Positions 1-55,070 of a stretch of 64,000 nt of DNA are shown here, in pieces. The stretch is from Candidatus Sungiibacteriota bacterium. GTDB taxonomy: Bacteria > Patescibacteriota > Minisyncoccia > Sungbacterales > SURF-37. Within the stretch, counting starts at the first letter, position 1; every line of letters starts with the position of its first letter. Position numbers and translations under genes: made by a program. Location: assembly GCA_016186145.1 (NCBI GenBank), contig JACPMF010000002.1:18473-82472 (forward strand), given 5' to 3'. The notes beneath the pieces are model-generated. The model saw nothing but the letters and a program-made list of their open reading frames with translations. It was not told the DNA's origin and did not search any database.

Positions 1-44
1 AAAAGTTATTTGCAAAATTGGTGCTGGGGTCGCTAAATCAGCGT

Positions 45-1205
45 ATGGCAAAAAAGAAAAAAATCTTATATGTCATTACCAAGTCCAACTGGGGCGGAGC
101 CCAGCGTTATGTTTTTGATTTGGCAACAAGTCTGCCATCGGAACGATTTAAAGTTACCGTGGCGGCGGGCGGCAACGGGCCCTTCCTCCAAAAACTCAAG
201 CAGGCAGGCGTTAAAACCGTCCCCATCCCCAATCTTGAACGAGACATAAGCGTCCTTAAAGAACTTCTTTCACTCACTTCCCTTTTCAAAATTTTAAGAA
301 GAGAGCGCCCGGATATAATTCACCTCAATAGTTCAAAAATCGGCGGCCTCGGCGCCATCGCCGCTTTTGTTTCAAAACCAATAACTAAAAACTATAAACT
401 AAAAACTATATTTACCGTCCACGGCTGGGGATTCCATGAACCGCGGCCGCGCTGGCAAAAGTCGTTTATCCTCTTTCTCTCGCGGCTCGCCGGGTTATTC
501 CAAAGTCACCTTATCCACGTTAGCCGGCACGACCTCGCCGCAACCCATGCGCTCGGAGTGTGCGCGCCGGGGAATGCAGAATACATACCCCTTGCTGTAA
601 ACCATTGCACTCCGCTAAATCCCAGCCGCTCAAGAGAATTTTTGAGCAAAAAAACCGGCATCGAAGAAAAATCGTTCTGGATCGGAACAGTGGCGGAACT
701 CACAAAAAACAAAGGACTTGCGTATTTGATCGACAGTATTAATGAGGTAAGAAAAAAAAATCCGGAGTTCAAAATACAAGTTCTTATCATCGGCGAAGGA
801 GAAGAACGGGAACGCCTGCAAAACCAGATACGGAAGCTTGGCCTTGAAAACACCGTACATCTTGCCGGATTCATCCCGGACGCCGCGCGGTACCTGAAAG
901 CGTTTGACATATTTATCCTCCCGTCTTTAAAGGAAGGACTGCCGTACACCCTCCTAGAGGCCATCAACGCAAAAATTCCTGTCATTGCGACCGCAGTAGG
1001 AGGCATACCGGACCTGATTGAACATGAACAAGACGGGTTGCTTGTTCCGCCGGCAAACTCTTCGACTCTTACAAAAGCTATCACCACCCTCTTAGTTGAT
1101 AGCGAAAAACGAAGAATTTTCGCAGAGAACGCGGCAAAAAAAATCCGAGAACGAAATTCATTCTCGGAGATGATTCAAAAACATGTTGCTCTATACTTGA
1201 ATTAG
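45..1205 (+). CDS. Glycosyltransferase family 4 (GT-B, GT1 Pfam clan)
   Basis: C-terminal EGLPYTLLEA and PVIAT motifs typical of GT4 retaining glycosyltransferases. ATG at 45; the ORF track begins at an in-frame TTG at 18. Confidence 0.8.
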   Translation: MAKKKKILYVITKSNWGGAQRYVFDLATSLPSERFKVTVAAGGNGPFLQKLKQAGVKTVPIPNLERDISVLKELLSLTSLFKILRRERPDIIHLNSSKIGGLGAIAAFVSKPITKNYKLKTIFTVHGWGFHEPRPRWQKSFILFLSRLAGLFQSHLIHVSRHDLAATHALGVCAPGNAEYIPLAVNHCTPLNPSRSREFLSKKTGIEEKSFWIGTVAELTKNKGLAYLIDSINEVRKKNPEFKIQVLIIGEGEERERLQNQIRKLGLENTVHLAGFIPDAARYLKAFDIFILPSLKEGLPYTLLEAINAKIPVIATAVGGIPDLIEHEQDGLLVPPANSSTLTKAITTLLVDSEKRRIFAENAAKKIRERNSFSEMIQKHVALYLN

Positions 1206-16466: not shown

Positions 16467-16488
16467 ATATGTTTTTTTGAGGCCAGAA

Positions 16489-16632
16489 GCCCTAAACCCG
16501 AAACTCTAAACCCTAAATAAACCCAAATGACCAAATCGATGGTTCGCTCATCAAGATTATATTGTTTCTCTTTTTGGGTTTCGGTCATTGTAACTTGTTT
16601 AGGGTTTAGGACCTAGAGTTTAGGGTTTAGAA
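16489..16632. repeat. Long imperfect inverted repeat in the divergent neuA2/neuB2 intergenic region
   Basis: Left arm gccctaaacccgaaactctaaaccctaaataaacccaaa; right arm tttgggtttcgg...tttagggtttagg...agagtttagggtttag. Shared units: tttagggtttag, agagttt, tttgggttt. Confidence 0.5.
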
Positions 16633-23246: not shown

Positions 23247-24581
23247 TTAATTTCTAAATTTCTCTAATAGGAATTCGCCAAGTCTTTTTCCGGCTTTCCG
23301 GTCAAACGTTCCATAATATTCCTTTACTATTTTCCCGCGCCCCTCCTCATCAAGATTTGGTTCGCGAAGATAGCGCAAAGCCCAATGTTTTAATTCCTCG
23401 GGGCTTTTAACCAGCCGCACACCCCCGCTTTCCAACGCAAACTTATGGTGATCATAATCGTAATACTGGCCGATACTTTTATGATACGCCCTGGGGGAAG
23501 CGTCAAAACCGATAAGAATAGTCGGTTTATTAAATATCGCGGCGTCCACAATCATTGTAGAGGCCCATGTAATAACTATATCACTTGCGTTTAAACAATT
23601 TGCCAGATGCCGGTCCGCCTCTTTTGTCATGTGCGCTTCCGTAAAATTGGGATACATCCCCGGATTATCGAAAACAACATTCTTGGGAGGAACATATTCA
23701 CCAAGTTCATCTCGTCCGACTACCGGAAGGCGGACAAAAACATTGACATCCAGATCTTTCAACGACTCAAGCACTATTGGCGTAATCGGATTTTTTTCCA
23801 AATATTTGTCGCCGGGGGTTGCGAAAAGAATGACCTTTTTTTGCGGGTCAATATTGTTGACCTTTAAAAATTGGCTGCGCGGGGTGCATTCGGAGCTTAC
23901 ATATCGGTCATAATGCGGTATGCCCACGGCAAATACACGATCCCGCGGCATATCGCCAAGGCGCGACACTTCATCCTTTACTCGCTCCGAATTAACCACC
24001 ATATAATCAGGAATGTGGCTTAACAAAGTTTTTGACGTAACGTTATCCCATGAACGCACCATACCAATCGCTGTCACGCCTTTACGTTTTGCCGCACGCA
24101 TCATTTTTACGTCTTGCAAGGTATAGACGTCCGCCGCAAAAAGCAAATCCGGAGAATATCTTTCAAAAAATAAATCAAAATCGACTCCGGTAACAATCTT
24201 GTCCGCAAGAAATCGGTACAAATTGCGCACAAAACGAAAACGTCCCAAGTTGGCCGCGAAAATGGAAAATAGATAATCAAATGCGTTGCGATCGCGGGCA
24301 AACTTTGACCAGCGCTGAATGCTTCTTGTCCTAGTATGAAGCAAATTCGTCGCCCAAACCCACGCCCACCGCTCATTCCATTTTTCCCGTTCCGGAGACA
24401 CCGGGATTCCTTCCACAAGAACATTCGGGCCGCCAAATTCCTTTTGGAGCGTTTCCCTGCGCTTCTCCGGAGCAAAAATAATTACACGGACATCTCCGTT
24501 GGCAAGCGTCGTAAATGCCTCGGTGGATAAAATATTTCTTGAGACAAACCCTTGGAAACAAGTTATAAAGATGGTCTTCAT
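23247..24581 (-). CDS. TagB/TagF-like polyol-phosphate transferase, paralog 2
   Basis: Same architecture as paralog 1: N-terminal MKTIFIT..., GIPHYDRY, and C-terminal IVDAAIFNKPTILIGFD...FDRKAGKRL. Confidence 0.55.
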   Translation of the reverse strand: MKTIFITCFQGFVSRNILSTEAFTTLANGDVRVIIFAPEKRRETLQKEFGGPNVLVEGIPVSPEREKWNERWAWVWATNLLHTRTRSIQRWSKFARDRNAFDYLFSIFAANLGRFRFVRNLYRFLADKIVTGVDFDLFFERYSPDLLFAADVYTLQDVKMMRAAKRKGVTAIGMVRSWDNVTSKTLLSHIPDYMVVNSERVKDEVSRLGDMPRDRVFAVGIPHYDRYVSSECTPRSQFLKVNNIDPQKKVILFATPGDKYLEKNPITPIVLESLKDLDVNVFVRLPVVGRDELGEYVPPKNVVFDNPGMYPNFTEAHMTKEADRHLANCLNASDIVITWASTMIVDAAIFNKPTILIGFDASPRAYHKSIGQYYDYDHHKFALESGGVRLVKSPEELKHWALRYLREPNLDEEGRGKIVKEYYGTFDRKAGKRLGEFLLEKFRN

Positions 24582-24588
24582 TTATAAT

Positions 24589-24620
24589 GCTGAATGCTAA
24601 ATGATAAATGCTGAAACCGT
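24589..24620. repeat. Left inverted repeat of the four-helix-bundle cassette (ATGCTGAAT family)
   Basis: ataATGCTGAATGCTAAATGATAAATGCTGAAA. Its reverse complement recurs at 24975-25012. Confidence 0.6.
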
Positions 24621-24974
24621 TTATTGCTTCGCATTTAAGATGATTCTCGATAAAATTTTAATAATCTGCTCGTTTTCATCAATCAACTTCTCAAATTCTG
24701 TCTCTAAAACAAAACCAAGATCAAATGAAAATCGAATCCAGAATTTTGTTTCAACAGCAGATTTCTTTGCAACAGACACAAACTGAATAAAATCTTTCCT
24801 CGAAACACCAGCGCTGCCTTCAAAAAGATTCGCCGGTATAGAAGTAACCGAGCGAATTAATTGTGAGCTTACGGCAAACCCTTCAGAATTCTTTGGAAAT
24901 TTTCTTACCAGCCTTACGATATCTAGCGCAAAACGATATCCCCGCTCTTGTATATTTTCACCTTTGTTAATCAT
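24621..24974 (-). CDS. Four-helix-bundle protein (TIGR02436; 23S rRNA intervening-sequence protein family)
   Basis: About 117 aa, MINKGENIQERGYRFALDIVRLVRKFPK...KFWIRFS. Start at ATG 24974; the upstream MLNAEYL residues are encoded by the repeat. Confidence 0.7.
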   Translation of the reverse strand: MINKGENIQERGYRFALDIVRLVRKFPKNSEGFAVSSQLIRSVTSIPANLFEGSAGVSRKDFIQFVSVAKKSAVETKFWIRFSFDLGFVLETEFEKLIDENEQIIKILSRIILNAKQ

Positions 24975-25012
24975 CAGATATTCAGCATTCAGCATTTATA
25001 ATTTAGCATTCG
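24975..25012. repeat. Right inverted repeat of the four-helix-bundle cassette
   Basis: atATTCAGCATTCAGCATTTATAATTTAGCATTCG; overlaps the stop of the downstream TagF-like gene. Confidence 0.6.
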
Positions 25013-26367
25013 AGTATTACATTTGCTACGCGCTCGCCCGATTTGCCGTCAAGACGCCAGCATTGTTCTTCCACAAAACGCCTTCTTTGTTCTCTATCAA
25101 GCAAGGGGTCGCGTAAGTATGCATTAATGACGTCGACCAGTTCTTGCCGGCTTCCGGCAAGGCGTATGCCGCGCGCGCGCAATACCTTTCTGAAATGGTC
25201 GGTTTTATAACGCTGTATGGGCGAACGGGCAAGCCGGGAACTTTTTTTGACTTCAAAATTAACGCCGACGGATGGTTTGTCAAAAACAGCGGCATCCACA
25301 ATAATGCTTGCCGAATAACCGACCACGACCGAAGTGTTGGCAAGCAAATTGGTCATGCGCCGCAACTCGTCAAAATCCATATCCCAATCTTCGCTCCGCT
25401 TCGTGCCGAAACGAACACCCGGTAAATCATACTTCAGCCATGGCCGTTTTTTAACTTCTTGTTCATCAAGAAAGTCATTCGGCGGAAACCGAACAAGCAA
25501 TTCGGCATCTTTAATCTCACCGCCGGATATAACTTCGTGAAGAAGATCAATTACCTCCCAGTCTGAATCGGAAAAGGTAACTCCGACCGGCGCATAAAGA
25601 ATCAGGTGCTTCTTGGCATCAAGGCCGTTTTCTTTGAAAAACTTTTCACGCGAGCCAGGCTTGTCGGTTATATATTGGTCGTATTGCGGAATGCCGCATG
25701 CGGCAACGCGTTCCTCCGCCATGTCCGCGTGCTCTACCGCTTCCTGCTTTAAAATCTGATTAAACACAATGAGTTTGTCCGGTAAAAGCCGCACGGAAGA
25801 CCGAGCGGTAAGCTTATCCCAAGAGTTTACATAGCCGACGGTAACGATACCTCGCCGCTTTGATTCACGAAGCAGCGCTGTCTCCCCATCGTCAAAAAGA
25901 TTCGTCACAACCACAGCATCCGGACGGTATTTTTCAAGAACGGAACCGAAACCGGAATCCCCAACCAAATGGTAGTCGACAAACCTAAGCGCTTGCCGTA
26001 CCACTTTCCGGGCTATTACCCAATTAAAAAGCAAACTCGAAACATACCTTGAGTAATTTCTGTGAGAATCGTAAGACATTTTGTGGCGCAAGTCGGTGGT
26101 CGCCGTCTTTATCAGGCGGAATTTCAAAAAACTGAACATGCGCTCCAGCGCTCCGCCGGGAATCCTATAAAAAGCATCGTAGGCCAGCCGTTCGTGAGGA
26201 ATCTCTTGTTGGTACAGCAAGACCCTGTCAGGAAATCTCATAAGGCAAACAATGCGAACATCCTTCTCCTTCAACAAGGCATTGAGAACGCCGGTACGCA
26301 AGATATTCTTTGCGGCAGCGCCGTGAAAAATTGTGAGAAGAATCGTTTTCATCTGCTGGTTATGCAT
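25003..26367 (-). CDS. TagB/TagF-like polyol-phosphate transferase, paralog 3
   Basis: MKTILLTIF..., GIPQYDQY, and C-terminal IVDAAVFDKPSVGVNFE...LDGKSGERV. Confidence 0.55.
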   Translation of the reverse strand: MHNQQMKTILLTIFHGAAAKNILRTGVLNALLKEKDVRIVCLMRFPDRVLLYQQEIPHERLAYDAFYRIPGGALERMFSFLKFRLIKTATTDLRHKMSYDSHRNYSRYVSSLLFNWVIARKVVRQALRFVDYHLVGDSGFGSVLEKYRPDAVVVTNLFDDGETALLRESKRRGIVTVGYVNSWDKLTARSSVRLLPDKLIVFNQILKQEAVEHADMAEERVAACGIPQYDQYITDKPGSREKFFKENGLDAKKHLILYAPVGVTFSDSDWEVIDLLHEVISGGEIKDAELLVRFPPNDFLDEQEVKKRPWLKYDLPGVRFGTKRSEDWDMDFDELRRMTNLLANTSVVVGYSASIIVDAAVFDKPSVGVNFEVKKSSRLARSPIQRYKTDHFRKVLRARGIRLAGSRQELVDVINAYLRDPLLDREQRRRFVEEQCWRLDGKSGERVANVILEC

Positions 26368-32105: not shown

Positions 32106-32188
32106 TCCGCAATTCACCCCACACATAACTTATAAGCTATGTGTGGGGTTCATCCGTCCCGCTTCAAGCGGGACGGAATTCTTGCGGA
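32106..32188. other. Structured element: two adjacent perfect hairpins enclosed by a 7-bp outer stem
   Basis: Outer stem tccgcaa/ttgcgga. Hairpin 1 (32117-32148): ccccacacata-acttataagc-tatgtgtgggg. Hairpin 2 (32153-32177): tccgtcccgc-ttcaa-gcgggacgga. Hairpin 1 shares the cccacacataact sequence with the TIRs at 47393 and 54907. Confidence 0.4.
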
Positions 32189-33288: not shown

Positions 33289-36057
33289 TCAAGAAATCAA
33301 ATAGTTTAAGAGCCTCTCAATGTTTTGTTCTATCCCAAACTTTTCATTGTCAATTTTAATATCCGGACTGGTTGGAGCCTCGTATGGATTTGTTGCGGCA
33401 ACGCCGATAAAATTCGATATCTCCCCGGCAAGGGCTTTCTTGTAAAGTCCCTTGGGGTCGCGCTCAATGCACTTCTCAAGTGAAGCGTTCACATACAACT
33501 CCAAAAATCCACCACCAATGATTGTTCGCGCCATTGCCCGATCTTCCCGATACGGCGATATTATCGGGACAAGTACAAAGTCATGCTCCCCTGCCCTCTC
33601 TCGTGCAAGTTCGGCAATCAAACGGTTATTCTCGCGTATGTCTTCGCGCGAAAAACTGAGGTGTTTGTTCTGGCCGCTTCTTATGGCATCCCCGTCAAGA
33701 ACGCACACGCTTTTCCCGCGCGACTCAAGTTCATTTTTTAATTTTTCAGCGATAGTTGATTTGCCGGACCCGGAAAGCCCCGTGAACCAAATAACGGTCC
33801 CTTTCCGATTTTCATTTTTGACAAAAACTTCCTCCCGACCGCTCACCGCTTCAGCGATGATTTCTGAAATCTCCGGCCTCATAAACCACTCGGGCGGACG
33901 TTCGCCCAGTTCAAATATTTTCCGAGCCTCGGTGCCGCTTATGGAAAGCTTGTCTGACGGGTCATGTTCCGGGCTTTCTGAAGCATGCATGTGATCTCCG
34001 GTTTTCTTTGAATAAAATACTTCCCCGAACCTTATCGGTTTAATTTTCAAATCAGGAAATTCATCAAAAATTTTATGCGATGCGTCGGCAGGGTAAAAAT
34101 TACCGACACCCGTATGATCCCGCCCTACGACAAAATGGCTGCACCCGAAATTCTGCCTGCAAATTGCGGTAAAAAGCGCCTCGCGAGGACCGGCATATCT
34201 TGAATACGTGTTAAAGGTCGCGAATACAACCTTATTTTCCGGATAAATATCATTCATCATCCGTTGATAACTTTTAATAATATATGCGGCATGGTAATCT
34301 CCCGCCTTTTTCTTACCAACCACCGGATGCACAAAAAGCCCGTCGCAATTCTCCTCTTCCAGGGCTTTTAGCTGAATATATTCATGGCTTCTATGAATTA
34401 CATTCCGCGTATGGAAGCCAACGACTCGCGACCAGTGCTTTTCCGCGAAAAGCCGGCGGACCTGGCGTGGCGCCAACGCATAATCCGAAAACTCCGCCCT
34501 TCTGCGGCGAAACAAATCGATTTTTCCGCCCACCAATATCGGGAGCATCGCCATAACCTGTTTTACGCCCGGATGACTCTCATCCAATGTGCCGTAAAGG
34601 CGCTTGGCAAAAAGTTCTTTATCAAACGCGTATATCTCATCAACACGCAAAACGGCAAAAGCGTTTCCTTGTTTGTCCGCAAGTACTACTTCGCGCCCCG
34701 GAATTAGTTTTCTCGCGGCTTCTTCAGAAACGTCTAAAACAATCGGAAGGGGCCAAATCGTTCCGTTCGCAAGACGCATCGTTTCGAGAACGCTCTCACA
34801 ATCTTTTTTTCCCATAAATCCTTCGAGCGGGCTGAACGTTCCAAACGCAATCTGTTCCGCGTCCATCTGCCGCGTTTCGTCGACTAAAATCTTCGGTACG
34901 GTTTCAAGAAACTTTTGCGCCGGCGGTTTTAACAAAATTCTTTCTACCAAGGATCCGCCATGAGGCGGTACAAGAACCGACCCGTAATCGCCCGAGAACA
35001 AATAACCGTCTTTTTCAAGGTGATTTGCAAGCTCAACCGCGGCGAGTTGGTATTCCCGACGGCTTGGGAGAGAAACGGCCTCTCCAACAAGCTTCTGCAT
35101 CATAGAAACGCATTCGAACGGGTACTTCCCTATCGCCGTCTCGGCCGAAAGGGCGACCCCGGCAGCCCCATCCAAAATCGTTGCAATAACATCGTGCGCC
35201 TCCGCCCGCGTTGGCCTTTGTTTTTCCACCATTGTTTCTAAAAGGTTTGTTGCGACAAAAACCGGTTTTCCGTGTTGGTGCGCGTGAGACATAATGATTT
35301 TCTGGGCAAATGGGATTTTCTCAATCGGTATTTCTTTTGAAAGATCGCCGCGATCAATAAGAAGCGCATCGGATTTTTGAATTATTTCGTCAAGGTTTTT
35401 CAAACCATCAACGCATTCGATCTTTGAAATAATTTTCATCCTCCCTTTTGTGGCATCCCGAACCGTGTCGACAAAATCCCCGGAACGCATAAAAGAAGCG
35501 GCAATATATCCGACACCTTCTTGCAGGCCGATCGCAATCGACTGGTAATCTTTTTCCGATAGCGGAGGCAGATCATATGCCTTCGGCATCGCTGAATCAA
35601 TAATTACAGCTTTGTTATTTCCGATACGGCCGGCACTCATCGCTTTTGCGAGAACAAAACCGTCTCCCGCATGGCTTGTATCTGCGACACGAAGAATCAA
35701 AGACTCAAAATCTATATGCAGCATATCCCCGGGCTCGAGCTGGCTTACAATATGCGAAGGGCGAAGAGAGATATTCTGTTGGTCGCCGACAATGTCTGCG
35801 GCATGAATACGCACCTCTTCGTCCTCAGAGAACATGATGGAATTCCCAGAAAGGCGGCCTGAACGGATCTGAGAACCTTCGGTATCGACAATAAATGGAA
35901 TGCCGATTTTTTTTGCAAGCGCGATAAAATAGCGTAGATCATCTACGCTTGAGTGAGACATGTTGATGCGAACGAAATCAACGCCTTTGGCCTTGAGTCT
36001 TCGAAGGCCTGCTTCGGTACGGACGGAAGGACCGAGGGTTACAATGAGTTTAACCAT
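33289..36057 (-). CDS. Tri-domain fusion: pyruvate-kinase-like barrel + sulfate adenylyltransferase (ATP sulfurylase) + adenylylsulfate kinase
   Basis: N-terminal pyruvate-kinase-like region: LIVTLGPS, DTEGSQIRSG, LIDRGDLSKEIP, ILDGAAGVALSAETAIGKYP. Middle ATP-sulfurylase region: HTRN, GRDHTG. C-terminal APS kinase: GLSGSGKST, LDGDAIR. Start at ATG 36057 (MVKLIV). Confidence 0.8.
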   Translation of the reverse strand: MVKLIVTLGPSVRTEAGLRRLKAKGVDFVRINMSHSSVDDLRYFIALAKKIGIPFIVDTEGSQIRSGRLSGNSIMFSEDEEVRIHAADIVGDQQNISLRPSHIVSQLEPGDMLHIDFESLILRVADTSHAGDGFVLAKAMSAGRIGNNKAVIIDSAMPKAYDLPPLSEKDYQSIAIGLQEGVGYIAASFMRSGDFVDTVRDATKGRMKIISKIECVDGLKNLDEIIQKSDALLIDRGDLSKEIPIEKIPFAQKIIMSHAHQHGKPVFVATNLLETMVEKQRPTRAEAHDVIATILDGAAGVALSAETAIGKYPFECVSMMQKLVGEAVSLPSRREYQLAAVELANHLEKDGYLFSGDYGSVLVPPHGGSLVERILLKPPAQKFLETVPKILVDETRQMDAEQIAFGTFSPLEGFMGKKDCESVLETMRLANGTIWPLPIVLDVSEEAARKLIPGREVVLADKQGNAFAVLRVDEIYAFDKELFAKRLYGTLDESHPGVKQVMAMLPILVGGKIDLFRRRRAEFSDYALAPRQVRRLFAEKHWSRVVGFHTRNVIHRSHEYIQLKALEEENCDGLFVHPVVGKKKAGDYHAAYIIKSYQRMMNDIYPENKVVFATFNTYSRYAGPREALFTAICRQNFGCSHFVVGRDHTGVGNFYPADASHKIFDEFPDLKIKPIRFGEVFYSKKTGDHMHASESPEHDPSDKLSISGTEARKIFELGERPPEWFMRPEISEIIAEAVSGREEVFVKNENRKGTVIWFTGLSGSGKSTIAEKLKNELESRGKSVCVLDGDAIRSGQNKHLSFSREDIRENNRLIAELARERAGEHDFVLVPIISPYREDRAMARTIIGGGFLELYVNASLEKCIERDPKGLYKKALAGEISNFIGVAATNPYEAPTSPDIKIDNEKFGIEQNIERLLNYLIS

Positions 36058-36063
36058 GATGAA

Positions 36064-36162
36064 TAATGCTGAATTATAAATGCTGAATTCTGAATAATAC
36101 GATAAAGTCATCTGCTACCAACATCGTTCAATAATTAGCATTTGGCATTCAGCATTTAGCAT
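36064..36162. repeat. Empty inverted-repeat pair of the ATGCTGAAT family
   Basis: aATGCTGAATtataaATGCTGAATtctgaat ... 45-bp spacer ... agcatttggcATTCAGCATttagcatt. No cargo ORF. The right arm encodes the C-terminus of the upstream methyltransferase. Confidence 0.5.
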
Positions 36163-37012
36163 TAAGTATGACTGTGAGCATCTTATCTTTAGGCTCCGAA
36201 ACCCTTTTATACGTCAGTCCAAGTCTTTGCGCCAAAAATTGCAAACTGGCATGGGAAAAAATGTACGGGTGATACGGATTCATTTGATCAAAAACAAGCA
36301 AATTCGGCGTCTGAATATAAATAATACCGCTCTTCAGAAGACATTCTTTTGCAAACCTAACTATGCTTACCGGGTCAATGGTATTTTCCAGAGAATGCGA
36401 AAAGACAATCGCGTCAAATTTCTCGCCCCGTTTGCCGATATTTTCCAGGTCTTCCGCATAACTTCCCAGAAGTTCAATGTTAAAGTCCTTAATGGTTTTT
36501 TGAGCTTCATCAGACGGCTCTACGGCAAAAACTTTGCACTGGTATTTTTTTTTAAATTCCGAAAGTGTTACGCCAAAACCGCAACCAACCTCTAAAACGC
36601 GAGAGTCCGCGCCAAGACTAATCGCGCTTGCAACAACCGGAATTATTGTTTTCGCCCTCTGCTCGCGATGTTTTTCCAGGCGATTTTCTAAACCCTCCTT
36701 GGGATCCCACTTCTTTTCATCATCCCACTTGTATTTCCCCGATTGCCACATCTGGCCTTCTTTATGGAAGCCGGCATTTCTTATTTTTTGCTGCCAGAAC
36801 AAATTCTTATAAAAATCCTTGTATGATTCCCTGGTCGGCCGCGGATTCATAAACTTCAAACCGCACGCGGGACAAAAAACATACCAAAAATCAACCCCGA
36901 ACCATTCAATCTTTCCATTGGGAACCATCGCTGCCCCATCGCAAAAAGGGCACGCGTCCAATGCCTCGAAATCAAAAGTGGCACTTTGATAATTATCCTC
37001 ATTCCTGTTCAT
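36149..37012 (-). CDS. Class I SAM-dependent methyltransferase with N-terminal zinc ribbon
   Basis: CPFCDG...CPACG ribbon; VLEVGCGFG motif I. Probable start at ATG 37012 (MNRNED). Confidence 0.65.
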   Translation of the reverse strand: MNRNEDNYQSATFDFEALDACPFCDGAAMVPNGKIEWFGVDFWYVFCPACGLKFMNPRPTRESYKDFYKNLFWQQKIRNAGFHKEGQMWQSGKYKWDDEKKWDPKEGLENRLEKHREQRAKTIIPVVASAISLGADSRVLEVGCGFGVTLSEFKKKYQCKVFAVEPSDEAQKTIKDFNIELLGSYAEDLENIGKRGEKFDAIVFSHSLENTIDPVSIVRFAKECLLKSGIIYIQTPNLLVFDQMNPYHPYIFSHASLQFLAQRLGLTYKRVSEPKDKMLTVILNAKC

Positions 37013-47390: not shown

Positions 47391-47392
47391 CA

Positions 47393-47687
47393 TCCCACAC
47401 ATAACTAATGCGTAAAACTATTGCGAAGTCTTTCCTTGAGCCTCCGCAGTCCCTGCGCATGTAGCTTTAAAGATTTCTCCCGATTATATGCATCTATTTT
47501 TGAAGAGTATGCCTCAAAATATACAAGGCGCCATGGAGCATACTTTTTGGTGTGGTATGAAAAACCACTATTATGCCACGAAAGTCGTTTCTGCAAATTA
47601 GAAGTACATCCTATATACAAACTGCGATTTTTCTTAGATTGTAAGAGATATACACAATAAAGCATAGCGCATTAGTTATGTGTGGGA
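47393..47687. mobile_element. TIR-bounded mini-element carrying a GIY-YIG nuclease gene (cccacacataact family)
   Basis: Perfect 19-20-bp TIRs: tcccacacataactaatgcg (47393-47412) and cgcattagttatgtgtggga (47668-47687). Flanked by ttcat on both sides. Confidence 0.6.
47405..47665 (-). CDS. GIY-YIG nuclease family protein (YhbQ-like)
   Basis: MLYCVYLLQS...LYIGCTSNLQKRLSWHN. Confidence 0.8.
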   Translation of the reverse strand: MLYCVYLLQSKKNRSLYIGCTSNLQKRLSWHNSGFSYHTKKYAPWRLVYFEAYSSKIDAYNREKSLKLHAQGLRRLKERLRNSFTH

Positions 47688-47741
47688 TTCATAAACAAAA
47701 GAAGTGATACTTCTGTCTATTCCGTAATACCCTCAAAAGCA

Positions 47742-48908
47742 TCACAAAGTACTCAAACGGCCGATAATGCGTTCGGTCCGTTTTTTCCACGTATGATCTC
47801 CGGCTATTTCCAGCGCGCGGACGGCGCGCCTTCTTGACTCCGTGCGATCAGTAACCGCCCGATTTATGCCTTCCGCCAATGCTTCGGCGTTTTCCGGCTC
47901 AACCAAAAACGCCGAAGCATCGTCAATAATTTCCCTTATAGAATTCAAATCAGAAGCGACAATCGGCACGCCGCTTGCCATGTATTCAAAAATCTTCATC
48001 GGCGACATGTAAAAATTATAATGATCGTTTTTAGGAAACGGCGATATCAAAACATCGCACATTTTCAGATACTGGGGAACGCTGGAATGTTTAACCCAAC
48101 CGGTAAAAATAAGCTTCCGCTCTATGCCCATACCGGACGCCATTCTTTTATAATAGTCCGCATCTTCTTTACTTCCTCCGATTATAAGGGCCTTAAAATC
48201 GGGGCCAAGCAACTTCATAGCGCTAAACAGAGTTCCAACACCCTTTTCCATGTCCATAGTCCGCAACGAACCTGCGTAGCCGATCAAAAAGGTCTCCTCC
48301 GGAATATCGTAAGATTTTCTTAACAATACGCCATTGCCGGCCCCTGAAAAAGATTCAACATCAACAGCGTTTGGCTCATAGAAAAGCCTCTCTGCGGGCA
48401 CATCAAACAATTCGGCAATGCGCCCCTGTTTCCACCGGTTTGTAACAACCGCAAAACGGACGCGCCTGAAAAGCGTTTTATAAAATCTTGTATTACGAGG
48501 GAAATCATGCACTTCGTAAACAGTGTTTGGGAACCTCAACGAGGCAAAAAGAAGCGGCAACGCCTCATTTGAATACACGACAGCATCTTTTTTTGCAAAA
48601 AACAAAAGATACAGCAAAACCATTTTTGAAAACACGATATAACTTGCCGCAAAAGCCAGCCGCTTAAAAAAAGGCAGAAAAAGTAAGTCAATGGTCGGAA
48701 GATAAACAACCTTAAAATTATTTTTTACACCGTAAAATTCCGCAGGAGTGTTTCTTGATCTGCCGAGACGCCTCGGCGCGAGAAAAGTAACGGACACGCC
48801 AGCATCGGCAAACGCCTCCGCATTTTTTGCGGCAAAAACTGCCGCCGCTTTCTCGCCGGGAAATCTGCCGTGAAATATCAAAAATAGCTCTTTATGCACT
48901 GGCCTCAT
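47742..48908 (-). CDS. Glycosyltransferase family 4
   Basis: KIFEYMASGVPIVASDL motif. Confidence 0.8.
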   Translation of the reverse strand: MRPVHKELFLIFHGRFPGEKAAAVFAAKNAEAFADAGVSVTFLAPRRLGRSRNTPAEFYGVKNNFKVVYLPTIDLLFLPFFKRLAFAASYIVFSKMVLLYLLFFAKKDAVVYSNEALPLLFASLRFPNTVYEVHDFPRNTRFYKTLFRRVRFAVVTNRWKQGRIAELFDVPAERLFYEPNAVDVESFSGAGNGVLLRKSYDIPEETFLIGYAGSLRTMDMEKGVGTLFSAMKLLGPDFKALIIGGSKEDADYYKRMASGMGIERKLIFTGWVKHSSVPQYLKMCDVLISPFPKNDHYNFYMSPMKIFEYMASGVPIVASDLNSIREIIDDASAFLVEPENAEALAEGINRAVTDRTESRRRAVRALEIAGDHTWKKRTERIIGRLSTL

Positions 48909-50068
48909 ATGGACCCAAAAGACTCTTTATACATTAACAAATACTCATTTTGAGTTTTTGGCGACAAAGCAAGAACTTCTTCCTGCGCCCTCTCGGCCAT
49001 CTGTCTCATTTTCTGATTATTTTGTCTGGCCCATTTTAAAATACCGGCAAGCTTTTGGGCATCTTTTACCCCTATCACCCGCCCCGTTTCTCCATCCCTA
49101 ATTATGTCCCCCGCCACTCCAACATCGGTCATAACCACCGGACAGCCGGCGGCCGCAGCTTCAAGCACGGTACGGCCATAACCTTCAAAATTTGAAGTCA
49201 GAAGATAGATATCGGCGCCTTTATAGTATGAAACAAGATCGTCCTGCCAACCCTCAAAGCAGACTTTGTCCGCAAACCCTAAACTCGAAACTCTTCCGCC
49301 GGAGGCGGATCCGCCTTTGGCGGAAAACCCTAAACCATTACGTTCCGGGCCGTCTCCGACAATAACAAGGCCGCTTTTGGGAAATGACTTAACAAACTCC
49401 GAAAACGCCTCAAGCGCCATGCCGATATTTTTCTCACGCGTAAGTCGCGAAACCATTAGAATAATAAAATCAAATTGAGGATATTTGTTATGAAGATTAA
49501 AGCTTGGTCCTGCGTCAGCAATTCGTGCGCAGTCAACAAAGATAGGCAATACAGACAATGCTGAATGCTGAATGCTGAATGCTGAATTTAACGAATTAGC
49601 AATTCGTTTAGAAACAACTCGAAATTTGTCACCGCTGGGAATAATAAATCGCGCTAACCAATACCTCAATCGCTCTTTCCATGAATTTTTTCTGAAGCGC
49701 GGTGAGAAAAAATCTGCATGAATTTGAATATGAAGTTTTACACCAAGCGCTTTTTTCAAAAACCAACCGGCTATTCCGGTTTCTGCCGGATCTTGAACAC
49801 TCACCATTTTAATACCTCGCTCTTTAATAATCTTCTTGGCGATACGAAACGCATCAAACGGCCGCATAAAATAAAACCGCGAATTTGTAGGATAAAGAAA
49901 AAGAGGCATTGCGCGTTCCTGCTTGAATCCGCGGCCGGTATAAATAACCATATGATACTCCTCAAAAAGCCCGGCGTATTCGCGGATTCTTGCACCCGCA
50001 GGAGAATTCGGATCAAGCATGGAAATATCGGTCCCAATTATTAATATTTTCCCAGCACTTATTGACAT
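48905..50068 (-). CDS. Glycosyltransferase family 4
   Basis: EGYGRTVLEAAAAGCPVVMTDVG motif. Carries an in-frame (ATGCTGAAT)x3 repeat plus a palindrome at 49556-49600. Confidence 0.8.
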   Translation of the reverse strand: MSISAGKILIIGTDISMLDPNSPAGARIREYAGLFEEYHMVIYTGRGFKQERAMPLFLYPTNSRFYFMRPFDAFRIAKKIIKERGIKMVSVQDPAETGIAGWFLKKALGVKLHIQIHADFFSPRFRKNSWKERLRYWLARFIIPSGDKFRVVSKRIANSLNSAFSIQHSALSVLPIFVDCARIADAGPSFNLHNKYPQFDFIILMVSRLTREKNIGMALEAFSEFVKSFPKSGLVIVGDGPERNGLGFSAKGGSASGGRVSSLGFADKVCFEGWQDDLVSYYKGADIYLLTSNFEGYGRTVLEAAAAGCPVVMTDVGVAGDIIRDGETGRVIGVKDAQKLAGILKWARQNNQKMRQMAERAQEEVLALSPKTQNEYLLMYKESFGSI

Positions 50069-54870: not shown

Positions 54871-54906
54871 GGCTTTATTCGTAGCCGAGTTGTAGAAACT
54901 CGTCAA

Positions 54907-55026
54907 TCCCACACATAACTGGACATGTTTTTGTTTTCAGTCACGAAAGAATTGGTAGCGATTTGTCAGACTAAAAAGTATGTTATGATTTAAAACACGG
55001 GACATTATGTCAAGTTATGTGTGGGA
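54907..55026. mobile_element. Non-coding MITE-like element of the cccacacataact TIR family
   Basis: tcccacacataact (54907-54920) and agttatgtgtggga (55013-55026). Flanked by tcaa on both sides. Confidence 0.5.
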
Positions 55027-55070
55027 TCAATTGACCGTCTCGCAATAAACCAAGTAAGATATAAACGTAT

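Follow-up and report, generated by a model that had tools for sequence, protein, structure and literature searches.

Within a 64-kb stretch of a Candidatus Sungbacteria genome (candidate phyla radiation, CPR; Patescibacteria), hereafter the window, a gene for a four-helix-bundle (4HB) protein is enclosed by two inverted arrays of tandem heptanucleotides and forms with them a cassette of ~430 nt, inserted between two TagF-like genes (coordinates in Table 1). The cassette is a discrete unit bounded by the outer edges of its arrays. Relatives lack it at the orthologous junction, and other CPR genomes carry it in unrelated contexts; hairpins that have its arms but no open reading frame (ORF) lie elsewhere in the Sungbacteria genome, and the anatomy is common to at least six phyla. 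The interpretation favored here, with a little more confidence than doubt, is that of an intervening sequence (IVS)-type hairpin cassette in a protein-coding operon, consisting of a 5' array of ~4-5 heptamers, the gene for a 117-amino-acid (aa) 4HB protein and an inverted 3' array, which is probably cut by RNase III and whose protein probably recognizes its own arrays. The window locus itself is a known kind of element in a new setting, an IVS-type cassette in a CPR operon; the new element is the family-wide coupling of 4HB genes with heptamer arrays, which appears undescribed. The coupling joins two puzzles of ~30 years' standing, the role of the S23p/4HB proteins and the abundance of heptanucleotide repeats in the same organisms: 4HB genes are nearly always bracketed by inverted heptamer arrays that follow the protein clade, with the rRNA IVS as a special case. 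In cyanobacteria and Bacteroidota few hypothetical proteins are commoner than the 4HB proteins, which recur in CRISPR-Cas, restriction-modification and polysaccharide operons.

The genes surrounding the cassette lie nearly all on the minus strand and are closely packed, and those nearest to it encode glycerophosphotransferases, a methyltransferase and an epimerase. A preliminary description, made from the letters alone, had placed a TIGR02436-type ORF with inverted repeat flanks between two TagF-like genes, and profile searches bear this out: the ORF scores 103.8 bits against TIGR02436 (cut-off 24) and 94.1 bits against PF05635 (cut-off 33.8), and both neighbors belong to PF04464 (Glyphos_transf; CDP-glycerol glycerophosphotransferase), sharing 29% identity with each other. 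By sequence homology the 4HB protein is related to two solved structures, PDB 2RLD (E 2.7e-14) and 2GSC, each deposited with five chains. A protein identical to it is annotated in a Candidatus Sungbacteria metagenome-assembled genome, which places the host in the CPR. It contains the motif IRSVTSIPANLFEG, which matches R-x3-S-x3-N-x2-E; the motif reported for the family is GxxRxxxSxxxNxxE (PMC3936711). R41, S45, N49 and E52 are invariant in a narrow alignment (A1), and in a broad alignment (A2) S45 is invariant and N49 and E52 nearly so. In gene orientation, the 5' arm comprises ~4.6 heptamers, AATGCTA AATTATA AATGCTG AATGCTG, and ends 6 nt before the ATG of the 4HB gene (24974), and the 3' arm reads TTCAGCA TTTATCA TTTAGCA TTCAGCA TT on the coding strand. 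Tandem Repeats Finder (TRF) bounds the two arrays at 24980-25011/12 and 24586-24612/15, and their units are AATGCTG, AATGCTA, AATTATA and AATGATA. The arms are complementary over 24 nt at 96% or over 30 nt at 83%, the order of the variant units is also mirrored between them, and the minimum-free-energy fold of the cassette transcript pairs both arms (-119.6 kcal/mol, z -3.4). The upstream TagF-like gene takes its final codons and, as had been stated, its TAA stop (25003-25005) from the first unit of the 5' arm; the companion claim, that the repeat also supplies the ATG of the downstream gene (24579-24581), fails unless a degenerate unit is counted, this ATG lying 4 nt past the last clear unit of the 3' arm. 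The 4HB start at 24974 is backed by homologs in alignment A1, and the public annotation (NCBI, Logan) places the start at an ATG inside the heptamer array (24995), for a protein of 124 aa. Where arrays contain ATG, start codons of 4HB genes are probably misassigned in a systematic way, the array of the Xanthomonas 4HB gene XCC0516 overlapping its start codon too, and a rule is offered for correcting start calls that fall inside arrays.

Within the window, the repeat is not a random low-complexity motif. The k-mer check suggested in the preliminary description finds ten copies of ATGCTGAAT against 0.56 expected, a count reached in 0 of 100 shuffles, and a 16-mer scan allowing up to two mismatches yields 8 matches against 0.03 expected. 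All ten copies of ATGCTGAAT fall in three sites: the cassette, an ORF-less hairpin and an array inside a gene. The hairpin had been described as a copy of the repeat pair between the methyltransferase and the sulfate-activation gene and is confirmed there, between the methyltransferase stop and the start (36057) of a gene for a pyruvate kinase (PK)/ATP-sulfurylase/adenosine phosphosulfate (APS)-kinase protein. Its RNA fold has an energy of -28.3 kcal/mol (z -2.7), and its arms are 84-94% identical to those of the cassette around an unrelated loop; an origin as a deletion remnant was rejected, since the loop (36096-36134) has no similarity to the 4HB gene. The third site lies in a gene for a glycosyltransferase of family GT4. 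Array and adjacent palindrome are both present as described, the array with 4.4 perfect units in place of the three first counted. It is translated as ...NSAFSIQHSAL... and has no partner arm. It aligns to the neighboring GT4 paralog with length unchanged, and therefore replaces rather than adds sequence. The region of the palindrome has a fold energy that is not unusual (z -1.1).

Heptamer arrays stand in frame in the N-terminal domain of two different GT4 genes (49557-49587 and 374-408), where one unit more or less would shift the frame, and these arrays may be phase-variable. It is very improbable that the arrays in general are contingency repeats, in which slippage by one unit switches genes on and off, even though such switching would fit a surface-polysaccharide locus. 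The two GT4 arrays (4.4 and 5 units) agree with it, as does the heptamer copy number of Coxiella, which varies among strains (PMC4990558), but paired inverted arrays around 4HB genes and arrays in rRNA are left unexplained, the window arrays show no length variants in three identical public contigs, and most arrays are imperfect.

The preliminary description had read the locus as a repeat-bounded insertion module, and comparison with relatives agrees with this. The gene order TagF-like, TagF-like, methyltransferase, 2-hydroxyacid dehydrogenase is common to three related genomes (L036, L037 and L038), in which the genes flanking the junction are orthologous (61-78% identity for the upstream and 65-76% for the downstream TagF-like protein, the downstream orthologs sharing the N-terminus MKTIFITCF), and the 4HB gene is absent from the TagF|TagF junction in all three. 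At this point L036 has a CCCTAAA hairpin of ~200 nt, whose homology to window 16487-16630 is clear, L037 a 52-nt gap with 8-nt arms AGAAATTA/TAATTTCT, and L038 a plain 12-bp inverted repeat. The junction hairpin of each of the four genomes starts within the final codons of the upstream gene and stops 0-5 nt short of the downstream ATG, and the C-terminal tails of the upstream TagF-like proteins differ after ...GERVAxxIL because they are encoded by different hairpin arms. Close relatives of the 4HB protein (57-83% identity) in other CPR genomes adjoin RNase H-like, CTP_transf_3, NusA and HMA genes, and AATGCTR arrays flank every one of them. DNA homology of the window to L033, L009 and L005 is confined to 24575/24586-25012, from array edge to array edge. 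Given its absence from the relatives' junction and the end of homology at the outer array edges, the cassette is a discrete insertion module. The two outcomes that the preliminary description had named as refuting, a common random motif and an orthologous junction already holding the gene without repeats, are both contradicted. Related CPR genomes differ sharply in their hairpin load: L037 (a 1.03-Mb contig, of which 21 kb were read) has the tightest operon, with most gaps at 0-50 nt and almost no heptamer arrays, and its one array in 21 kb is the 8-nt hairpin of the TagF|TagF junction.

The same junction raises a different explanation, namely that the hairpins belong to the host and serve at cistron boundaries to process or stabilize mRNA or to control translation, heptamers being an easy way to build them and the 4HB gene a passenger or a host regulator. 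It would account for the presence of a different hairpin in each genome at one junction, always from the stop codon to 0-5 nt before the ATG, for the ORF-less hairpins of the window, which also abut stop and start codons, for the TAACTGA repeats of Beggiatoaceae, also located just upstream of start codons, and for the strong purifying selection on the 4HB gene. However, the cassette appears with sharp borders in unrelated contexts and may be antisense to its operon (as in cas2|4HB|cas1), it destroys a methyltransferase gene in L019 (see below), it occurs in rRNA, where there is no cistron boundary, and most L037 junctions of the same operon function with gaps of 0-50 nt and no hairpin. As a full explanation, the host-element account is unlikely, though it deserves weight.

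The anatomy seen in the window extends well beyond the earlier description, being typical of the 4HB family in many phyla. Loci were drawn from GTDB genomes (L004-L008), a metagenome (L009), plasmids of cultured bacteria (L011-L029) and IMG/VR contigs (L040-L055); scans with the narrow alignment gave five loci from genome contigs and two from metagenome contigs, and the plasmids and IMG/VR gave broader samples. Among 40 non-redundant 4HB loci, 33 have arrays on both sides, seven on one side and none on neither. The flanking units are 7 nt, occasionally 8 nt, long, the arrays are inverted, and the unit varies by lineage (AATTAAG, AATTCAA, CAATTCG, TAATTCG, AAAAGTA, TGGTCAC and TTAGTGA are examples, as are CTCTCCG, AATTAGG, AATCCCC, GATGAAG, AGTAATG, TAACCTA and GATTGCG). 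Array-flanked 4HB genes occur in Patescibacteria, Cyanobacteria, Bacteroidota, Spirochaetota, Chloroflexota and Bacillota. Up to 200 bp from 4HB ORFs, 44 of 51 TRF arrays have a period of 7, 14, 21, 28 or 35, and arrays with such periods reach a density of 5.0 per kb, compared with 0.23 per kb elsewhere in the same loci. They are present in 41 of the 50 gaps that adjoin a 4HB gene and in 9 of 65 other gaps of these loci (odds ratio 28, p 7e-14). Merged arrays have a median length of 33 nt, or 4.7 units (interquartile range 31-45), and cognate arms pair with a mean of -64.7 kcal/mol, compared with -44.2 kcal/mol for arms of different loci. A moderately AT-rich genome with many simple repeats might be expected to place a common low-complexity motif near a 4HB gene by chance or composition; the ten exact 9-mers in the window, the ~20-fold enrichment of period-7 arrays within 200 bp of 4HB genes and the control with other gaps exclude this.

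Two other models of the arrays were rejected. Supply of a stop or start codon in every frame would suit AATGCTG, AATTAAG and CCCTAAA, but neither strand of CAATTCG contains a stop and only one strand of AATTCAA does, so this is not a general rule for the 7-nt period. Integron cassettes with attC sites and CRISPR mini-arrays do not match two symmetric arms of 7-nt units with no integrase and no spacers. The host operons are often concerned with defense or the cell surface (cas2|4HB|cas1, Cmr2|4HB|Cmr3, hsdS|4HB|hsdR, helicase|4HB|methylase, RND adaptor|4HB|permease), and the 4HB gene is sometimes antisense to them, for example in cas2|4HB|cas1; 4HB genes within cas loci have been reported before (PMC3936711). 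Cassettes in defense operons, or between the helicase and methylase halves of large plasmid genes, are found in L012, L017, L020 and L022-L026. The 'association' of 4HB genes with CRISPR and defense systems may merely mark places that tolerate insertions, and their scoring as 'CRISPR-/defense-associated' in guilt-by-association screens may reflect mere insertions.

The borders of the cassette are also seen in Nostoc. The cassettes of L019 (plasmid pNsp_c of Nostoc sp. ATCC 53789) and L029 are 86% identical exactly between the outer edges of (CAATTCG)4 and (GCGAATT)4; the flanks of the two are unrelated. A DNA cytosine methyltransferase gene that is whole in L030, with a single CAATTCG at its left border, has lost 328 bp from its middle in L019, where the 466-bp cassette stands instead. 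The regions compared are L019 2755-3651 and L030 1078-1836, and the record lists the two pieces of the L019 gene as a 'methyltransferase' of 77 aa and a 'hypothetical protein' of 92 aa. In L031 the content of the same 34-nt (CAATTCG)4 arms is a non-coding stretch of 150 bp, and in L032 it is 630 bp long and includes a small ORF; what defines this element family is therefore its arms, and its cargo varies, with the 4HB gene as the coding cargo that recurs. Copies H4-H6 of N. flagelliforme lie on homologous plasmid backbones and are not counted as independent insertions.

Such shared arms are what would be expected if the arrays were terminal inverted repeats of DNA transposons resembling MITEs (miniature inverted-repeat transposable elements), mobilized by an unlinked transposase, with 4HB as one of several cargoes. 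Besides the (CAATTCG)4 arms of L019, L029, L031 and L032, the conservation of the CCCTAAA hairpin interior at different sites in two genomes and the lack of a wobble signature in the arms (see below) point in this direction. Against it, 4HB is the sole recurrent coding cargo over six phyla and the arm sequence follows the 4HB clade, which would call for a matching unlinked transposase in each lineage; moreover, neither target-site duplications at the examined junctions nor a transposase beside the cassettes were seen. The MITE-like account is accordingly rather improbable, although both it and the host-element account could in part coexist with the reading as an IVS-type cassette.

Array unit sequence tracks the 4HB protein clade. 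Nearest protein neighbors share units, AATGCTR down to 57% protein identity, AATTCAA at 77%, AAAAGTA at 78% and CAATTCG at 89%, and TAATTCG, a one-base variant of CAATTCG, is found at 70%. In the CPR clade, synonymous divergence between 4HB genes is saturated (third-position identity 0.32-0.56) and dN/dS is 0.04-0.15, which indicates that the protein is functional and the cassettes are old. All seven CPR-clade cassettes nevertheless retain AATGCTR units. The array sequence is thus either selected or homogenized against other copies.

The closest known counterparts are the IVSs of 23S rRNA in Leptospira and Coxiella, in which a PF05635/TIGR02436 protein is likewise encoded in the loop of a stem formed by terminal inverted repeats. 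The Coxiella burnetii IVS is 428 nt long, contains the S23p ORF and a 28-bp terminal stem, and has three to four tandem GACAGAT units, of strain-variable number, directly before the S23p start; in vitro, cleavage by RNase III falls in the stem at the first heptamer (PMC4990558). The window cassette resembles it in size and in having heptamers just before the start codon. Unlike the 23S IVS, it stands between protein genes of a polysaccharide operon and not in the tip of an rRNA helix, and ORF-less elements sharing its arms are present in its genome; strong purifying selection acts on its ORF, in contrast to the Coxiella ORF, which seems to be in decay. According to the literature, 23S_rRNA_IVP genes are also present in CPR rRNA insertions. 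From these genes and the anatomy of the Coxiella IVS it follows that the rRNA IVS is the same cassette in another host RNA. At gathering thresholds, Rfam has zero matches in the window, and hence no rRNA was found there.

Heptamer repeats have themselves been published, as STRR in cyanobacteria, TAACTGA in Beggiatoaceae, Cyanobacteria and Bacteroidetes, and a repeat with 70 convergent pairs in Xanthomonas. STRR arrays are also located inside the gene for RNase P RNA (Vioque, 1997, as given in a citing paper). The arrays of the window, like STRR, TAACTGA and GGGAATC, are tandem 7-nt units, usually in two to six copies, dispersed and mostly intergenic, often just upstream of start codons and in convergent pairs able to form stem-loops; they differ in their unit, AATGCTG/AATGCTA, and in their host, a CPR bacterium. 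A prediction of the coupling was borne out in Xanthomonas: XCC0516 (PDB 2GSC) carries GGGAATC heptamers, and a supplement lists without comment a 4-unit GGGAATC array 6 nt from accB (bccP), overlapping the XCC0516 start (PMC4692102). Four-helix, S23 or intervening sequence is not mentioned in the two heptamer-repeat papers whose text was searched, and a link between heptamer repeats and 4HB genes was not found in the searched literature, an absence that is no proof of novelty.

Two further groups of elements invite comparison. Among homologous four-helix-bundle proteins is Avd, accessory to diversity-generating retroelements; it is pentameric, binds RNA and has been likened to S23 proteins. 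The avd genes of these retroelements are not described as having heptamer arrays, and in the four genes that flank the cassette (two per side) Pfam and NCBIfam gave no reverse transcriptase match and a template or variable repeat was not evident. The Correia/NEMIS elements of Neisseria are miniature inverted repeats that fold in mRNA and are cut by RNase III, and the palindromic elements of Rickettsia are hairpins found in frame inside genes. Both kinds, like the hairpins described here, are short and dispersed at gene boundaries, sometimes within coding sequence, and are tolerated via RNA processing or by staying in frame. In contrast to them, the elements here have tandem heptamer arrays as arms in place of unique terminal repeats and include one member with a conserved gene that is not for a transposase, and target-site duplications are not seen.

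How an IVS-type cassette might function can be outlined as follows. As only 6 nt separate the 5' arm from the ATG and no sigma-70-like site is found upstream of 24974 on the minus strand (counts being near the shuffle expectation), the cassette would be transcribed by read-through from the operon. The arms may pair in the RNA, with the 4HB message as the loop above a duplex of ~25-30 bp, and by analogy with the Coxiella 23S IVS this duplex may be cut by RNase III, which would make the insertion tolerable in rRNA and polycistronic mRNA alike. Translation of the 64-kb window in six frames shows no RNase III signature motif, which is uninformative for the genome. With less assurance, the 4HB protein may recognize the arrays of its own lineage, both in cis and, on ORF-less copies, in trans, and could either spread and maintain them or control their processing. 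Recognition of this kind would account for clade-specific units, their conservation, an array length of ~5 units and the ORF-less copies; perhaps one protomer of a pentamer binds each unit, the median array having 4.7. At the DNA level, the most economical guess is that one hairpin may be replaced by another via recombination. A wider proposal, conceivable but well short of probable, is that 4HB proteins are the missing partners of heptamer repeats such as STRR, TAACTGA and GGGAATC: each lineage would recognize its own heptamer and maintain or spread the hairpins, and protein and repeats together would form a widespread mobile element with no recognizable transposase, which would have settled in operon junctions, rRNA and RNase P RNA of bacteria ranging from CPR members to cyanobacteria.

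Several observations weigh against the interpretation as an IVS-type cassette. A signature of RNA pairing, with G.U exceeding A.C mismatches, is absent from the arms: mismatches counted on the 4HB sense strand are 23 G.U, 43 A.C and 100 others, vs. 1097 Watson-Crick pairs. This weakens a purely RNA-level view and suggests that arm complementarity may be kept by a process at the DNA level and not by selection on an RNA stem. Target-site duplications are not visible at the junctions of the window, L019, L029, L031, L032 and L036, where arms that overlap codons blur the borders, no recombinase was seen with the cassette, and no transposase adjoins any cassette examined (the window covering 64 kb of its genome). 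Arrays far outnumber 4HB genes, with about five hairpins and one 4HB gene in the window and 186 arrays in Xanthomonas. Two 4HB loci on viral contigs have an upstream hairpin only, and the sole 4HB match in a phage collection, an unverified record, lacks arrays. The 4HB genes of L008 and L023 have in-frame stops, and the Coxiella authors did not detect S23p and consider its ORF to be decaying (PMC4990558). Finally, polymerase slippage alone is held to explain the 7-nt period (Mrazek, 2007, as cited in PMC4679880). Decaying cassettes keep their flanking arrays, both in a Bacteroidetes metagenome-assembled genome (L008 3001-3321) and on a Monoglobus plasmid (L023 3001-3330), where the 4HB remnant occupies an hsdS|hsdR gap and is unannotated in its record.

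Table 1. Coordinates in the window of the cassette, its host genes and other arrays and hairpins.
Feature	Position	Strand	Basis or detail
4HB gene, 117 aa	24621-24974	-	TIGR02436 / PF05635, '23S rRNA intervening sequence protein'
5' arm of cassette, gene orientation	24980-25012	-	TRF period 7, 4.6 copies; inverted-repeat arm
3' arm of cassette, inverted heptamer array	24586-24615	-	TRF period 7
TagF-like glycerophosphotransferase, upstream host gene ('paralog 3')	25003-26367	-	PF04464
TagF-like glycerophosphotransferase, downstream host gene ('paralog 2')	23247-24581	-	PF04464
ORF-less AATGCTG-family hairpin	36065-36163	-	arms 36065-36095 / 36135-36163, 39-nt loop
AATGCTG array, 4.4 perfect units, in GT4 glycosyltransferase ORF 48905-50068	49557-49587	-	TRF, 100% matches
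Palindrome aacgaatt-agc-aattcgtt beside in-gene array	49590-49608		8-bp hairpin fold
CCCTAAA ... TTTAGGG hairpin, ~87-nt loop, between divergent genes	16487-16630		fold -45.8 kcal/mol, z -4.05
Hairpin with AAAATGC/AATTCAA-type 7-nt arrays, between co-directional genes	39364-39495		fold -35.9 kcal/mol, z -3.65
Short hairpin, 8-nt units AGAAATTA / TTTCTTAA	12172-12232		tandem-repeat and inverted-repeat scans, fold
One-sided array of 8-nt unit AGAAATTA/TTTCTTAA	21219-21268		
AAAACTA array, 5 units, in GT4 gene ORF 18-1205 (+)	374-408		

The window also holds hairpins built from other units, which the preliminary description had not covered, and shows that reduced CPR genomes carry active hairpin-element families. 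The CCCTAAA/TTTAGGG hairpin looks like a family of dispersed non-coding hairpin elements: its sites are non-orthologous (window 16487-16630 vs. L036 2853-3056 and 4490-4526, twice within 2 kb), its interior (..AAUGACCGAAACCCAAAAA..) is conserved in two Sungbacteria-like genomes, and its unit resembles the plant telomere repeat. A second type of cassette (47392-47688) contains an ORF on the minus strand (47405-47665) for an 86-aa GIY-YIG nuclease (PF01541, E 1.7e-15) between perfect 21-bp inverted repeats, ATCCCACACATAACT.., at 47392-47412 and 47668-47688. This repeat has 6 matches in the window against 0.08 expected and recurs as an ORF-less pair 80 nt apart (54906-55027) and as a near-palindromic pair (32116-32149). 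The gene next to the ORF-less AATGCTG-family hairpin (33289-36057, minus strand) encodes a fusion of a pyruvate-kinase barrel (PF00224), PUA_2, ATP-sulfurylase and APS kinase, an unusual combination for sulfate activation; the ORF finder gives 940 aa, and 36057 is likely its true start. The PK/sulfurylase fusion is kept in relatives (L037 1-2352; L038 736-3525), with APS kinase encoded by a separate gene in L037.

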